Positions 15,856 through 22,457 of a stretch of DNA of 32,497 nt are shown here, in pieces. The notes under the pieces were generated by a model that saw only the letters and a program-made list of their open reading frames with translations, was not told the origin of the DNA and made no database searches. This DNA comes from a virus (lineage: Duplodnaviria; Caudoviricetes), in the IMG/VR virus record IMGVR_UViG_3300020045_002760, positions 1 to 32,497 of that record; one strand, written 5' to 3'. The first letter of the stretch is position 1. Each line of letters begins with the position of its first letter. Made by a program: the position numbers and the translations under genes.

Positions 15856-15927
15856 AGCGCTTTGGTGAAGTTGGTATCCCGTTAGCCTCATAAGCTAGAG
15901 TCACAGGTTCGATTCCTGTTCGCGCAA
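15856..15927 (+). tRNA. tRNA-Met(CAT)-like, degenerate
   Basis: T-arm ACAGG-TTCGATT-CCTGT, anticodon arm TTAGC-CTCATAA-GCTAG, D-loop TTGGTA. Three mismatches in the acceptor stem and no encoded CCA. Confidence 0.7.
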
Positions 15928-16557: not shown

Positions 16558-16727
16558 AACCGCCAAACGTACCATGTCCGCCACGAAATCCGCATTGTCA
16601 TGGAGCAATAGACGACCTCCCAATCGATAATCCATTCTTTATAACAATAATTATCGTCTTAATAACAATTTATGCGGGTTGGTGGCTGAGTATAAATGTT
16701 CGCCTTATGAATGAGGTAAATAATTAA
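16554..16727 (+). CDS. 57-aa Pro-rich/TM peptide with an LPID motif (not in ORF track)
   Basis: MKPPNVPCPPRNPHCHGAIDDLPIDNPFFITIIIVLITIYAGWWL...; its stop TAA is part of the TAAC at the array's left end. Confidence 0.55.
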   Translation: MKPPNVPCPPRNPHCHGAIDDLPIDNPFFITIIIVLITIYAGWWLSINVRLMNEVNN

Positions 16728-16850
16728 CGTTGAGCATTGTTGCAGTAGCGTACTGACACAAGACAATGCAACGGACAAACATTAATAAAAACAAGAATTA
16801 CTAATCATTAAATTAAGCAAAAATCTAGCTATAAGTACAATATATTGTTG
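16725..16850. repeat. cassette site S1 (degenerate stem)
   Basis: TAAC gttga gcATTGTtgcagTAGC ... GCTAtaagtACAAT atatt GTTG; left arm similar to S6. Confidence 0.7.
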
Positions 16851-16878
16851 TAGGTAGGTTTTTTAAACATCACGGAAT

Positions 16879-17109
16879 ATGAAAACATCATTAGAAAAAG
16901 CACGAGAATTATATGATAAATTCGATGAGTTACTTCCATGCGAAGGAACAACTACAGGGGATACACCAATTGAATGTGCTATTATTGTTATTGACGAAAT
17001 AGATTCTATTTATCAAAAACTAACTCCAAAAGACGATCCTTATCGTTATTTGATAGAATTAGAATACTGGCAAGATGTGAAAGAAAAATTGAAGAAAATA
17101 TGTGCGTAA
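16879..17109 (+). CDS. cassette 1: hypothetical phage protein
   Basis: KARELYDKF...CAIIVIDEI...YWQDVKE. Flanked by IRs at 16847-16861 and 17130-17144. Confidence 0.75.
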   Translation: MKTSLEKARELYDKFDELLPCEGTTTGDTPIECAIIVIDEIDSIYQKLTPKDDPYRYLIELEYWQDVKEKLKKICA

Positions 17110-17140
17110 CTTTGGCTACAAAGTTGAGCAAACTTACCTA

Positions 17141-17265
17141 CAACGTTTTGACGCTTGGTGCGGTTGGGGCTAAAAAAGCCAAATTAATAACTATAAAAAT
17201 AATCATTATGATACAAGACAATAATAAAATTCAAGACGATGCCCAATCGCTCCAAATGGCTGTTA
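17141..17265. repeat. cassette site S2
   Basis: CAAC gtttt GACGCTTGGTGCGGTTGGG ... CCCAATCGCTCCAAATGGC t GTTA. Confidence 0.8.
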
Positions 17266-17804
17266 TGCACAGTGCATTTACGCATTTGATGTTAGATATT
17301 GAAACAATGGGGAATAAGTCAAATTCTGCAATAATAAGTATTGGAGCAGTTGAATTTGATATTAATACTGGTAAAACTGGAAAGGATTTTTACAGGAACG
17401 TATCATTAAAATCGTCAATAGATTTAGGTTTAAATATCGATGCTGATACTGTTATGTGGTGGATGAATCAAAGTGATGATGCTCGTAAAAGTTTAACTAA
17501 CGAAAAAGCAATTTCAATAAATCAGGCACTTGTTGATTTTAGAGAATTTTGTAATAAAGAATATCAAATTTGGGGCAATTCCGCAAGGTTTGATTTAGGA
17601 TTAATGCAAGATGCTTATAATAAAGCAAACATCGATATTCCTTGGGATTTTAGAAAAGAAAGATGTGTTAGAACTTTGGTAAGTTTCAATCCTGAAATAA
17701 AGAAAAATTTAGACTTTAAAGGAACTGCACACAATGCTTTATCTGATTGTTATCATCAAATTGAATATTGTCGTTTAACGTGGTCATCTTTGCATTGTGC
17801 ATAA
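17208..17804 (+). CDS. cassette 2: DEDDh 3'-5' exonuclease/exoribonuclease
   Basis: HLMLDIETMG, WGNSARFDL and HNALSDC motifs. Start placed at ATG 17208 (A-rich context) rather than 17100. Confidence 0.85.
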   Translation: MIQDNNKIQDDAQSLQMAVMHSAFTHLMLDIETMGNKSNSAIISIGAVEFDINTGKTGKDFYRNVSLKSSIDLGLNIDADTVMWWMNQSDDARKSLTNEKAISINQALVDFREFCNKEYQIWGNSARFDLGLMQDAYNKANIDIPWDFRKERCVRTLVSFNPEIKKNLDFKGTAHNALSDCYHQIEYCRLTWSSLHCA

Positions 17805-17930
17805 CGTTATTCGGCTTTGTCTGGTGCCGAAAATTCAAGACAAAACATAAAAGTACACGATAATTTTTAAATTAAAAAACAATGAGTAAAGACACAAAAC
17901 CAAGTAAGGCATTAGTCAAAACCGATGTTA
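17802..17930. repeat. cassette site S3
   Basis: TAAC gttat TCGGCTTTGTCTGGTGCC ... GGCATTAGTCAAAACCGA t GTTA. Confidence 0.8.
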
Positions 17931-18325
17931 TAGGAAGCCAAGATGAAGCCGATTTTTATCCTTGGAGTTCTCAGGAAGAAAAGGATTTTGAGTATTCAAT
18001 AATGGATGAATGTTATGCCGAAGAAAGAAAGTTCGATGAAAACAACAAAAGAATATCGGATAGGATATTGAAAATACTAAAAGCTGTAAAAAGCGAAGAA
18101 TGGTATTCTGAATTAATGGAATATTCAAAAGAAGCTGAAACTCATAATCCATTTTCTATTGTTAGAAAACCTAAAGGGCAATTTCAGGAAGAAGATGAAT
18201 TTAAATTACTAGGTGGTGTATGGGTCGAGCAATCTAGTTCTTATCCTTGTGAAGATTGTTATTATGGAACAGTAACCGTTAAAATAGACGAAAAACGTTA
18301 TTTAGAAATGCCATTCGCTTGTTAG
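17882..18325 (+). CDS. cassette 3: acidic hypothetical protein
   Basis: 147-aa ORF; IRs at 17927-17941 and 18340-18354. Confidence 0.75.
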   Translation: MSKDTKPSKALVKTDVIGSQDEADFYPWSSQEEKDFEYSIMDECYAEERKFDENNKRISDRILKILKAVKSEEWYSELMEYSKEAETHNPFSIVRKPKGQFQEEDEFKLLGGVWVEQSSSYPCEDCYYGTVTVKIDEKRYLEMPFAC

Positions 18326-18350
18326 CCGATAGTTGTGTATTGGTTTCCTA

Positions 18351-18480
18351 TAACGGATTGTTGCTATAAGAGGATTTTCGGATGAGTACAAAACCAACTT
18401 TCCGCTTTGCCAAATCACCACAAATACAGACTAATAAAACGATTAATCACTATGCCTAAAATCTCTTATAGCAACTGTTA
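18351..18480. repeat. cassette site S4
   Basis: TAAC ggatt GTTGCTATAAGAGgATTTT ... AAAATCTCTTATAGCAAC t GTTA, with one bulged G. Confidence 0.85.
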
Positions 18481-18513
18481 TCAGGAGTACGATAATTTAA
18501 AACTAAATATGTT

Positions 18514-18741
18514 ATGAAAATAAAAGACACAGAATATGGATTTTCAATTTTTCCTAGTTATGGAAAAGTACAAGCTGAAATATATAGGGTTTCAGAATTT
18601 AAAGATGGATTTAAAATGAATATAAGATTACTAGACAAAGAATTTGGCTCAATGTGGAGAACTCCAAATGAAGAAGATTATAAAAAAGCTAGAGAATGGG
18701 CTGACTTACAAATGAAAGGTATCTTAGATGCAAACTCGTAG
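18514..18741 (+). CDS. cassette 4: hypothetical protein
   Basis: 75-aa ORF; IRs at 18477-18490 and 18741-18754. Confidence 0.7.
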   Translation: MKIKDTEYGFSIFPSYGKVQAEIYRVSEFKDGFKMNIRLLDKEFGSMWRTPNEEDYKKAREWADLQMKGILDANS

Positions 18742-18750
18742 TATTCCTGA

Positions 18751-18876
18751 TAACGCTTTGCCTGTATGGTAAGTGGCGTGTAAATAAGCCAAAACATTAA
18801 ATAATTACTAACATTAACAAACACAAAACTATGTTTAAATTAAGCCAAATCAAGCCATTTATTATACAGGCTGTTA
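18751..18876. repeat. cassette site S5
   Basis: TAAC gcttt GCCTGTATGGTAAGTGGC ... GCCATTTATTATACAGGC t GTTA. Confidence 0.85.
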
Positions 18877-19130
18877 GTAGCTGTTTTTCTTCTAAACCAC
18901 CAAAATTACATTGGTACGATTGCCAATTTTATTACAAGAAAAAAGGTGCTGATATGTATTGTGTAGATTTTAATTTACAAGTAGGATTTGTAAATCAAAA
19001 AGACATTTTAAACGGACGAAAAGTAAAAAAACTAACAGGGTATAGGGTTGAAGAATTTCCTAAAAAAGTTCTTGATAATGGATTATTTTATTTTAAGATA
19101 AATGCTTATTTAGGGCAGTTCTCAAAATAG
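18831..19130 (+). CDS. cassette 5: hypothetical protein
   Basis: 99-aa ORF; IRs at 18873-18887 and 19124-19138. Confidence 0.7.
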   Translation: MFKLSQIKPFIIQAVSSCFSSKPPKLHWYDCQFYYKKKGADMYCVDFNLQVGFVNQKDILNGRKVKKLTGYRVEEFPKKVLDNGLFYFKINAYLGQFSK

Positions 19131-19134
19131 CTAC

Positions 19135-19262
19135 TAACGTTGGATAATTGTAGCAGTAGCGTACTGATACAAAACTATCATTCAGTTGAAGAATGATAAA
19201 ACCAAGAAAACGCAAAACATTAAATACAAAAACCATACAGCTATTGCTACAATTATGTGTTA
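19135..19262. repeat. cassette site S6
   Basis: TAAC gttgg ATAATTGTAGCAGTAGC ... GCTATTGCTACAATTAT gt GTTA. Confidence 0.85.
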
Positions 19263-19819
19263 CTAGCTGTTTTTATTCACTTATTATGGATTTAGGAACT
19301 TTTATCAGAGAAAACAAAAAAAGCGGTGGATTATCAATTGAAATATCTAACCAAGTAGAAAAATTATGGAATGAATATAAACTTGAAAAAACGGAAGAAA
19401 ATTGCAGTATTATTTCTGCTGATTTTGGAAGATTGGGAAGTTTGAATATTAAAGAAATAGCATCATTTGAAGAAGAAAAAGTTTTCAAATATGAAAGTGG
19501 TTCTTATGATTATATTTCTACAAAAACAAAATCAACTACAAATATATTGTGGACTGACTATCAAGAAATCGAGCCATATAATAGACAAAGTGGATTATAC
19601 GCAAATGGTTCTTCTTTTGAAAGTTTAGGAAAACCAATTTTAGAAAAAGAAGATTATCGTGAATTTGTTGCAAAACACGTTTATAATGGAAATGTAGCTT
19701 TTGCGGTTTGGGGATATGGATTTAATAATTTTTATGAATCAATAACATTTGGAATTTGCTTAAAAACTGATAAAGTAGATGAGTTTATTTCAAAACTAAG
19801 AGTTCTTATTGGCAAATAG
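19193..19819 (+). CDS. cassette 6: hypothetical protein (alternative start 19286)
   Basis: ORF flanked by IRs at 19259-19272 and 19814-19827. Confidence 0.7.
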   Translation: MIKPRKRKTLNTKTIQLLLQLCVTSCFYSLIMDLGTFIRENKKSGGLSIEISNQVEKLWNEYKLEKTEENCSIISADFGRLGSLNIKEIASFEEEKVFKYESGSYDYISTKTKSTTNILWTDYQEIEPYNRQSGLYANGSSFESLGKPILEKEDYREFVAKHVYNGNVAFAVWGYGFNNFYESITFGICLKTDKVDEFISKLRVLIGK

Positions 19820-19823
19820 CTAG

Positions 19824-19949
19824 TAACGTTATCTCGCTTGGCGAGGTTGGGAAAAGAAAGCCCTAATAATTAAATTAAAAAACCAAAAATGAAAGTACAA
19901 GACCAACATCAAATTAAGCCTGAAACCCAATCTTGCCAAACGAGTGTTA
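19824..19949. repeat. cassette site S7
   Basis: TAAC gttat CTCGCTTGGCGAGGTTGGG ... CCCAATCTTGCCAAACGAG t GTTA. Confidence 0.85.
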
Positions 19950-20701
19950 TGGTTAGTGCGGTTTTTCAAGGAGATTGCCTTGAAATAATGAAGACTATAC
20001 CTGACGAAAGCGTTGATATGATACTTGCAGACTTACCTTATGGAACAACTGCTTGTAAATGGGATACAGTTATTGATTTAGAAAAATTGTGGACAGAATA
20101 TAATCGAATTATAAAAGGGAATGGTGCAATTGTTCTTTTTTGCCAACAACCATTTACAAGCGCATTGATATCTAGTAATTATAAAATGTTTAAATATTTG
20201 TGGTATTGGAGAAAATCACGCCCATCTGGTTTTGTAAATGCTAAATTAAAACCTTTAAAAGATATTGAAGAAATTGCAGTTTTTTCAAAAGGAACAACCG
20301 CAAATAAATCAGTAAATAATATGCCATATTATCCACAAGGTTTGATTGAAGTAAATAAAAAGTGGAAACGCCCCAAGACTTATGGAACTGGAAAAGGTGT
20401 AAACCCAACTCGAAAAAGTCACGAATTAGAAAGAGTAATACAATTTGAAGGATATCCAAGACAGGTTTTAGATTATAATAAACATAACGGAAATCAATTT
20501 CACGAGACGGAAAAACCTGTTGAATTAATTGAGTATTTGATTAAAACTTATTCAACTGAAAACCAAATTATTCTTGATAATACAGCAGGAAGCGGAACTA
20601 CAGGAATTGCCTGTATAAATACAAATAGAAAGTACATTTTGATTGAAAAAGAAGAAAAGTATTTTGATGTCATAAACGAAAGAATTGCTAATCATACGTA
20701 A
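19889..20701 (+). CDS. cassette 7: N6-adenine/N4-cytosine DNA methyltransferase (beta class)
   Basis: GDCLE, DLPYG (motif IV), HETEKP, and ILDNTAGSGTT (motif I). IRs at 19946-19959 and 20731-20744. Confidence 0.9.
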   Translation: MKVQDQHQIKPETQSCQTSVMVSAVFQGDCLEIMKTIPDESVDMILADLPYGTTACKWDTVIDLEKLWTEYNRIIKGNGAIVLFCQQPFTSALISSNYKMFKYLWYWRKSRPSGFVNAKLKPLKDIEEIAVFSKGTTANKSVNNMPYYPQGLIEVNKKWKRPKTYGTGKGVNPTRKSHELERVIQFEGYPRQVLDYNKHNGNQFHETEKPVELIEYLIKTYSTENQIILDNTAGSGTTGIACINTNRKYILIEKEEKYFDVINERIANHT

Positions 20702-20768
20702 GGAAAATGTTCTTATGAAAACGTATCGTAGCATTAACCATAACTAACCGCTACAAGTAAACTAAATT

Positions 20769-20984
20769 ATGCAAAGTATTGATAATAAGATAATTATGCG
20801 TTTCAAAGTTTACGAAAATATCGTATGTTTAAACGATGGCACGCTTTATCAATTGCAGCATTGTCCACGAAAAAGAACTAAGATGTTTCGTAAGCTTTCG
20901 TATAATGAAAAAAGAGATGCTTATTATATTAACGGCGGGTTAGTTACACGAAAACGATTAGAAGAATTAAAATTTAACGTTTAA
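20769..20984 (+). CDS. hypothetical basic protein
   Basis: First backbone ORF after the array. Confidence 0.55.
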   Translation: MQSIDNKIIMRFKVYENIVCLNDGTLYQLQHCPRKRTKMFRKLSYNEKRDAYYINGGLVTRKRLEELKFNV

Positions 20985-21755: not shown

Positions 21756-22457
21756 ATGAAAACAGAAATTACAATTATGCCGGTTAACGACATCATGGAT
21801 ATGTCAAAAATGTTTGTAGAAAGCGGAATGTTTACCGATGCTAAAAGTGTAGCACAAGCATTCGTTAAAATACAAGCAGGTCAGGAAATAGGATTAGCCC
21901 CTTTTGCTGCAATGTCAGGAATAAACGTTATTATGGGTAAACCAACATTTGGCGCTGGAGTTATAGCATCAAGCGTAAAAGGAAGCCAAAAATACGATTT
22001 CAAAGTAAAAGAAATGAATGATAAAGTTTGTTCTATAGATTTCTTTGAGGGGAAAGAATTATTAGGGAACTCTACTTTTACAGCAGAAGACGCAAAAAAA
22101 CAGTCTACTAAGAATATGGATAAGTTTCCTAAAAATATGCTTTATGCTCGAGCAATGTCAAACGGTCAAAAATGGTATTGTCCCGATGTGTTTCAAATGG
22201 CGGTATATGTCCCTGAGGAAATGAATGCGATAGAGGCTGAGCAAACACAAGACATTACCCACGTAGAAGTAATTGAGCCCGCGCCAATACAATCGCCAAT
22301 TCCAACTCTTAACGACAAGCAGTTAAAAAAGCTGTTGGAATCAGATATTGAAACAATAGAAAAGTATTTAAATCTAGTAGAAGAAGGAAAAGTAACAATG
22401 ACACAAGTACAAGTATTGAATTTAGAGGATAAATTAACAGAACTTAGAAATAAATAA
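21756..22457 (+). CDS. single-strand annealing protein (RecT/Redbeta-like)
   Basis: AFVKIQAGQEIGL.P...INVIMGKP and KFPKNMLYARAMS...CPDV motifs. Confidence 0.7.
   Translation: MKTEITIMPVNDIMDMSKMFVESGMFTDAKSVAQAFVKIQAGQEIGLAPFAAMSGINVIMGKPTFGAGVIASSVKGSQKYDFKVKEMNDKVCSIDFFEGKELLGNSTFTAEDAKKQSTKNMDKFPKNMLYARAMSNGQKWYCPDVFQMAVYVPEEMNAIEAEQTQDITHVEVIEPAPIQSPIPTLNDKQLKKLLESDIETIEKYLNLVEEGKVTMTQVQVLNLEDKLTELRNK

Follow-up and report, generated by a model that had tools for sequence, protein, structure and literature searches.

Hairpin-bounded single-gene cassettes in a virus contig and their likely place in an integron-like system shared by Bacteroidota and phages

What kind of element is the run of seven hairpin-separated genes at 16725–20744 of the Caudoviricetes record IMGVR_UViG_3300020045_002760, and what could move its genes? 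The stretch of DNA analyzed here, which we call the window, is 32,497 nucleotides (nt) long and is the whole IMG/VR record (G000), a linear virus contig with an estimated completeness of 90%. A sequence-only reading had described the run as an integron-like, phage-borne platform of gene cassettes lacking an integrase, whose enzyme may act in trans. We concluded, with a probability of roughly 0.82, that the seven units are mobile single-gene cassettes of an integron-like system found in Bacteroidota and their phages, and that their folded hairpin sites are likely cut and joined by a Xer-like tyrosine recombinase that the contig does not encode.

Results

Structure of the sites and unit ends

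The array consisted of seven units of 384–917 bp (416, 661, 549, 400, 384, 689 and 917 bp), each with self-complementary ends. The terminal inverted repeat proposed earlier for each gene was present in all seven units, exactly where it had been placed. Every repeat comprised 10 perfect pairs, then an invariant G.T mismatch (position 11), and then 3–4 further pairs. Over positions 5–15, the two ends of the same unit matched at 9–10 positions in 7/7 units. Ends that face each other across a site matched at only 1–4 positions in 6/7 cases (the value for site 1 is offset by one base), and at 9 for units 5 and 6, which have a similar repeat. The gap from AAC to GTT was 118, 117, 121, 122, 118, 120 and 118 nt for sites 1 to 7, respectively. 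The geometry that had been proposed as common to all units held in general, but the stem of site 1 was degenerate, and this site was missed by both our geometric detector and our covariance model. The detector called the other sites (6/7), and nothing in 1.12 Mb of shuffled sequence; the covariance model likewise recovered 6/7, three of which were in its training set. The bulge, first described as a G followed by four nucleotides, was in fact a G followed by three or four. At the right end of the array no site body followed 20744, and the left flank held no convincing repeat partner of its own, the best upstream candidate matching at 11/15 positions from 3 kb away.

Across the family, 685 unique sites had an inner stem that paired despite varying sequence. 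At the inner box a T-A pair was nearly invariant and often preceded by a C.A mismatch, and position 14 of the stem held a G.T mismatch. The two boxes, inner and outer, lay 7 nt apart on the 3' arm, and the 5' arm carried three or four extra bases. Covariation was seen in 354 cells changed on both sides versus 110 in shuffles, counts that lean high in a set of sites picked for pairing. The complementarity of a unit's own ends was also evident in unselected site-to-site intervals: it was 8.1/11 in phages (281 intervals) versus 3.65 across a site and 3.7 in shuffled sequence, and 8.5 in hosts (114 intervals) versus 4.4 and 4.0. Predicted folding favored the circle form of a site over its array form by 2–10 kcal/mol, and the + strand over the − strand, in 7/7 window sites. 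By analogy with integrons, the + strand of the window would be the equivalent of the attC bottom strand.

Movement of whole units

We cut the arrays of 13 cultured Flavobacterium phages (13/48 Flavobacterium records with a match) into units. Comparison of the arrays revealed six indels of five distinct units, which measured 439 (twice), 506, 476, 342 and 858 bp, and every breakpoint fell within a shared (A)TAAC. In phage lillamy9-7 the 439-bp unit was gone from its inner place and was located instead at the terminal site. The terminal flank was identical in the 12 Flavobacterium phage arrays whose end was reached. Gene order in related arrays was therefore not fixed; whole units were lost, gained and reordered, and the cassette proposal withstood this comparison.

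When units were cut with the hairpin body upstream of the gene we obtained 27 distinct units, versus 35 with the body downstream, indicating that the body moves with the gene downstream of it. The polarity originally suggested by the integron analogy is thus reversed, in that the body travels upstream of its gene and the docking-like site stands at the right end. We place the crossover within AAC because the base preceding it travels with the cassette and the following G with the body; the exact bond cut would be that used by IntI, from which it is taken by analogy. We infer circles and single-strand recombination as part of the model.

Relatives of the window's own units were also found. Unit 2 was 89.6% identical in contig L382 over 17142–17808, from AAC to AAC, between different neighbors. 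Its exonuclease had 11 homologues, 10 of which were not framed as cassettes, and the three homologues of unit 3 had no flanking sites. The open reading frame (ORF) of unit 4 had a 73% homologue within the array of contig G002, and the unit 7 methyltransferase had 41 homologues among other phage cassettes; unit 6 had no relative in the IMG/VR scan. A syntenic relative (L004) held one different unit at the array locus. In contigs from four public runs, the body of site 3 stood behind another cassette end, and the end of unit 7 stood before another body. No empty site was found in close relatives, whose flanks were not conserved at the DNA level, and neither sites nor a recombinase were found in relative G001 (100% complete, RecT 81%). 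As a separate observation, an exact copy of window site 6 (100% over 121 bp) lay in reverse orientation at the contig end of L004 (1–121).

A recombinase family beside the arrays

A profile search of the whole record found no PF00589 tyrosine recombinase, which bears out the earlier statement that none is visible in the contig. At six distinct host loci, however, the end of the array held a recombinase gene, with a simple site next to it and the first cassette after that. The encoded proteins carried PF00589 and PF13495, scored 97–209 bits versus the cut-off of 265 for integron integrases (TIGR02249), and aligned to IntI4 (2A3V) with a gap that skipped IntI4 residues 209–245. Judged by these comparisons, the adjoining recombinases are Xer-like and without the IntI-specific insertion (I2 helix).

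Homologues at E<=1e-55 were present in 39/121 genomes of the phylum and in 58/151 genomes of the order holding a Porphyromonas metagenome-assembled genome. All of the longer recombinase regions that we picked by hand (16/16) contained a site, which was downstream and co-directional in 10 and upstream and divergent in 6. Eight IMG/VR contigs encoded short versions of the recombinase (266–294 amino acids, aa), and in five inspected IMG/VR contigs, Leef_1 and Freya_10 the gene started ~55 nt behind the terminal AAC. The 11 phage enzymes fell in two groups in a recombinase tree made by quick search, with long branches and no IntI or XerCD outgroup. An attI-like simple site beside the recombinase was seen in hosts and in recombinase-bearing phages, and the terminal site was used in lillamy9-7. 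The complete phage snusmum6-1, which shuffles its units, had no PF00589, and an enzyme acting in trans is likely for phages of this kind. The earlier idea of an enzyme in trans thus gained support, with the cognate family adjoining the arrays of hosts and of other phages.

Several further loci touch on these recombinases. Polaribacter phages Leef and Freya and Cellulophaga phage Ingeline encode 'integrases' that have been read as signs of a temperate lifestyle (PMC8776804) and that belong to the family (L282 6995–7858; L284 4147–4962; L283 6878–7669); the geometric detector called four sites in Leef, one upstream site in Freya_10 and none in Ingeline. In relative L006 (1–135, − strand) a cassette end abutted a recombinase gene that lacked its 5' part and was cut by the contig end, and further units lay at the opposite end of that contig. 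At L364 (NZ_CP104735.1, 2967–5117), tet(X3) lay directly behind a 5'-truncated family recombinase and an attI-like site, with the beginning of a hairpin site after it; this tet(X3) resembles the leading cassette of an array of this type that was transferred to Acinetobacter. Lastly, a second hairpin of 88–89 nt with a perfectly paired foot occurred next to family sites and short divergent host recombinases (L323, L324, L326).

Distribution, orientation and cargo

One sub-pattern of the site matched 132 loci in GTDB (~1,200 stretches estimated), where all but a few records were Bacteroidota or lacked a taxon name, and 128 loci in IMG/VR (~380 estimated). The covariance model, built from 58 sites and applied to 33 candidates per genome, found sites in 55/101 Bacteroidota genomes drawn from the phylum, counting the centre genome. 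The longest host arrays held 18 sites per 20 kb. Family sites were thus present in Bacteroidota hosts as well as in many phages. The platform proposed earlier is not peculiar to this phage. A plasmid-borne Chryseobacterium array of the family had a group II intron and an IS110 element inside it (L365 15765–17081).

The gene was on the + (reader's) strand in 202/207 phage cassettes and on the opposite strand in 89/95 host cassettes, among cassettes with an ORF of at least half their length at loci that are not independent; the unfiltered counts were 211/217 and 101/114, respectively. Homologues in 'host' cassettes existed for only 24/325 ORFs of phage cassettes, and those displayed as examples had the phage orientation, so the phage and host pools look largely separate. 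A 69-member cluster of cassette ORFs was inflated by shared leader peptides encoded by the site arm. The presumed recombinogenic strand was the G-rich strand in 33/45 phage versus 8/19 host loci (overlapping loci with no mapped origin), a hint of lagging-strand placement.

The window array and its neighbors

The array is flanked by a tRNA gene on one side and recombination genes on the other, in a contig whose other genes include tail, endolysin, RecT-like, primase and helicase genes. All of its sites and units are given on the + strand. Site 1 (16725–16850) reads TAAC-G-bulge-stem-loop-stem-T-GTTG and, with its degenerate stem, opens unit 1 (16728–17143), whose 76-aa ORF (16879–17109) has no assigned function and a weak match to phrog_21441. 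The loop of site 2 (17141–17265) contains the predicted start codon (17208) of the unit 2 gene, a 3'-5' exonuclease (PF16473, ORF 17208–17804, unit 17144–17804). Sites 2 to 7 were each found by detector and covariance model. Site 3 (17802–17930) precedes the 147-aa ORF (17882–18325, no assigned function) of unit 3 (17805–18353); site 4 (18351–18480) precedes the 75-aa ORF (18514–18741) of unit 4 (18354–18753); and site 5 (18751–18876) belongs to unit 5 (18754–19137), with a 99-aa ORF at 18831–19130 of no assigned function. Unit 6 (19138–19826), with site 6 at 19135–19262, has an ORF of at most 208 aa (19193–19819), again without assigned function. Unit 7 (19827–20743), with site 7 at 19824–19949, encodes an orphan N6/N4 DNA methyltransferase (PF01555, ORF 19889–20701). 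The cargo therefore comprises the exonuclease, the methyltransferase and five small proteins that fall in no named family, and 5/7 ORFs can start within the preceding hairpin loop. The array ends in a docking-like (attI-like) site at 20741–20770, a TAAC with no hairpin body behind it, which may serve for insertion and which resembles the terminal sites of G002, L150 and L210.

Rfam searches at both thresholds gave no match on the window's sites (e.g., to Flavo-1), and no Rfam family accounts for them, a point that the sequence-only reading had raised. Elsewhere in the window, a tRNA gene lies upstream of the array at 15856–15927 and a DUF805b RNA motif was detected at 1959–1990 in the Rfam scan. 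An open frame at 3–224 (− strand), opposite to the adjoining genes, recalls a portal protein by eye but had no PHROG match, and may be an assembly edge.

Discussion

In the fold that we propose for the + strand of each site, the 3' arm would present two boxes spaced by 7 nt, the outer one AAC/GTT and the inner one T(T/A)/(T/A)A, and the 5' arm would carry a 3–4-nt bulge. Strand exchange within AAC would excise a circle, in which the unit's own ends would lengthen the stem by ~14 bp, and circles would re-enter preferentially at the terminal site (20741–20770). The enzyme would be supplied by a host chromosomal array or by a co-infecting phage. The inverted phage genes would be read with the phage operon, often starting within the hairpin loop, and the cargo is made up of phage accessory genes, chiefly DNA methyltransferases, which likely counter host restriction.

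Several points weigh against this proposal. Neither a recombination event nor a folded substrate was observed, and circle junctions were not seen in our material, which consisted of assembled contigs only. The link between recombinase and site is one of adjacency. With the strict detector a site lay within ~1.5 kb at just 9/31 recombinase loci, and 16 Bacteroidales regions divided into 7 with sites, 1 with a site recognized by eye only, 1 without a recombinase ORF, and 7 with none, although several of the regions without sites were cut by contig ends. The terminal site of the window is a weak match to the ATATA-type consensus and has no recombinase beside it; the contig is linear and ~90% complete, so that a recombinase gene may lie in the missing part. 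Three isolate pairs also showed unit substitutions, beyond the six indels whose breakpoints were placed. Lastly, the model gives no account of what would keep an enzyme lacking the I2 helix from a second strand exchange on a hairpin.

Could the units be shuffled without any site-specific enzyme? A RecT-like single-stranded DNA-annealing protein is encoded outside the array, 1 kb away (21756–22457, + strand; phrog_561, E 5e-9), and homologous or annealing recombination might use the hairpins and shells as short homology. Complete shuffling phages without a recombinase would fit this explanation, and so would the re-use of site bodies and shells: near-identical shells enclosed unrelated ORFs in 30 pairs, and the shell of unit 1 was found around other ORFs in G002 and in contigs of four/four public runs. 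(We considered and rejected the idea that such re-use is phage-specific; hosts have 561 near-identical body pairs around different ORFs.) However, the indel breakpoints have merely 4–5 nt in common, a unit moved to a terminal site without hairpin homology, the self-complementary unit ends matter only in a circle, and the arrays adjoin one recombinase family. We therefore regard RecT-mediated shuffling as an improbable account of the array as a whole, but recombination of this type may explain the refilling of shells, for which the RecT-like protein is a candidate.

A second alternative is that the array is an ordinary CALIN (a group of attC sites that has no integron integrase), with classical attC sites served by a classical IntI. 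The GTT/AAC core, the 7-nt box spacing and a site length like that of sedentary chromosomal integrons agree with it. In addition, integrase-less clusters with DNA methyltransferases have been described in virulent phages, including Polaribacter phage P12002L, whose cluster was called a CALIN and one of whose cloned sites recombined with IntI1 (Qi et al. 2023, PMC9892861). That study called two sites in P12002L, as classical attC, whereas our geometric detector called 10. P12002L_attC1, a short member of the present site family, was the one site that IntI1 did not recombine (PMC9892861), and by our reading attC2, which IntI1 did recombine, is the terminal site of that array in its opposite-strand form. 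Given also the 3–4-nt bulge, the self-complementary ends of 14–15 bp, the lack of a single extrahelical base in the pair tables, and adjoining recombinases without the IntI insertion, we consider a classical CALIN very unlikely. The idea that the hairpins are RNA elements of an early operon (for processing, stability or translation control), with gene flux incidental, draws on the better folding of the + strand, which is also the coding strand, on the ORFs that can start within loops, and on an outer repeat that would close a stem around each gene in the mRNA, but it is very unlikely too, as in hosts these sites, with mismatches of unchanged polarity, have their genes on the opposite strand, Rfam gave no match, and the AAC-precise indels are left unexplained.

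Beyond the recombinase-driven cassette system proposed for the window, we lean, without strong conviction, toward a broader reading: a second integron lineage, in which folded single-stranded sites are recombined throughout the phylum Bacteroidota by a Xer-like enzyme that has no I2 helix. Virulent phages would operate a mirror image of this system, in which genes are inverted, recombination relies on short recombinases of their own or on that of the host in trans, and new cassettes arise when existing shells are refilled. If true, one mechanism would tie together the rAID-1 clusters discussed below, the shuffling of phage methyltransferases and some mobile resistance cassettes, and several phage 'integrases' taken as signs of lysogeny would be cassette recombinases. 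Integrons are hardly ever called in Bacteroidetes with standard tools (PMC9024848), yet over half of the sampled Bacteroidota genomes carry the sites, and cultured lytic phages shuffle units. The I2 helix is held to be what enabled integrases to act on hairpin DNA (PMC4792948), and an enzyme without it that acts on hairpin sites would be a test case for the origin of integrons. De novo cassette formation has been called largely unknown (PMC5371416), and shells refilled with unrelated phage genes offer a handle on it. With hosts and near-identical phage isolates in culture, the mechanism is directly testable.

Comparison with known systems

The system resembles integrons in its tandem single-gene cassettes, its GTT/AAC core, and its ~120-nt sites that are conserved in structure but variable in sequence. 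As in integrons, cassette ends are complementary only in the circle, and in arrays outside the window a simple docking-like site, where new units would enter, stands beside a tyrosine recombinase. As in attC, a core palindrome of AAC/GTT is accompanied by an inner box 7 nt away (in sites selected for pairing), and the boxes of the aadA7 attC shown in the supplement of Qi et al. 2023 (PMC9892861) are also 7 nt apart. The differences are equally clear. The family recombinase is without the I2-containing insertion, and the window has no integrase at all. Unlike canonical attC, the sites have a 3–4-nt one-sided bulge, a paired spacer and conserved G.T mismatches, with no extrahelical base in the pair tables, and their outer arms pair over 14–15 bp rather than over the 7-bp R box. 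At most host loci the recombinase gene points the same way as the array, unlike in integrons. Whereas the top strand of an integron carries each gene upstream of the attC that belongs to it, an arrangement shared by 89/95 host cassettes, the ORFs of the window and of 202/207 phage cassettes are inverted. In short, the system works like an integron, but its enzymes are not recognized as IntI nor its sites as canonical attC. Judged by layout, the window fits a CALIN, being a cassette cluster with no recombinase nearby. In the accessible parts of Qi et al. (PMC9892861), no Flavobacterium phage is listed and neither a cognate recombinase nor shuffling is described.

A closer match on the host side is provided by the rAID-1 clusters, immunity arrays of gut Bacteroidales (Ross et al., bioRxiv 10.1101/471110; 10.1101/2025.05.03.651265). 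In these clusters a XerD-family recombinase precedes low-GC genes that point the same way, and the repeated sequences between the genes are described as 'reminiscent of integrons' (10.1101/471110; 10.1101/2025.05.03.651265). Locus L374 has a layout of the rAID-1 type with a type VI secretion system immunity gene, and its recombinase falls among the family; its hairpin sites are short (~50 nt, ATT core), with a like bulge and self-complementary cassette ends. Matched by layout, the host side of the system is most likely the rAID-1 clusters. The published accounts, in their accessible parts, do not say how the sites are built, where units begin and end, where crossover and docking take place, or whether phages carry such arrays. 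Unlike rAID-1, which is headed by a 5' XerD-like recombinase >44% identical to BF9343_RS08045 and carries toxin-immunity cargo, the contig has no tyrosine recombinase, and its array carries an exonuclease, a methyltransferase and five proteins outside named families. Our literature search, in which coverage of subscription journals was poor, turned up no account of this kind of site or of the system in phages. The architecture as such varies one already known and had in part been foreshadowed in print.

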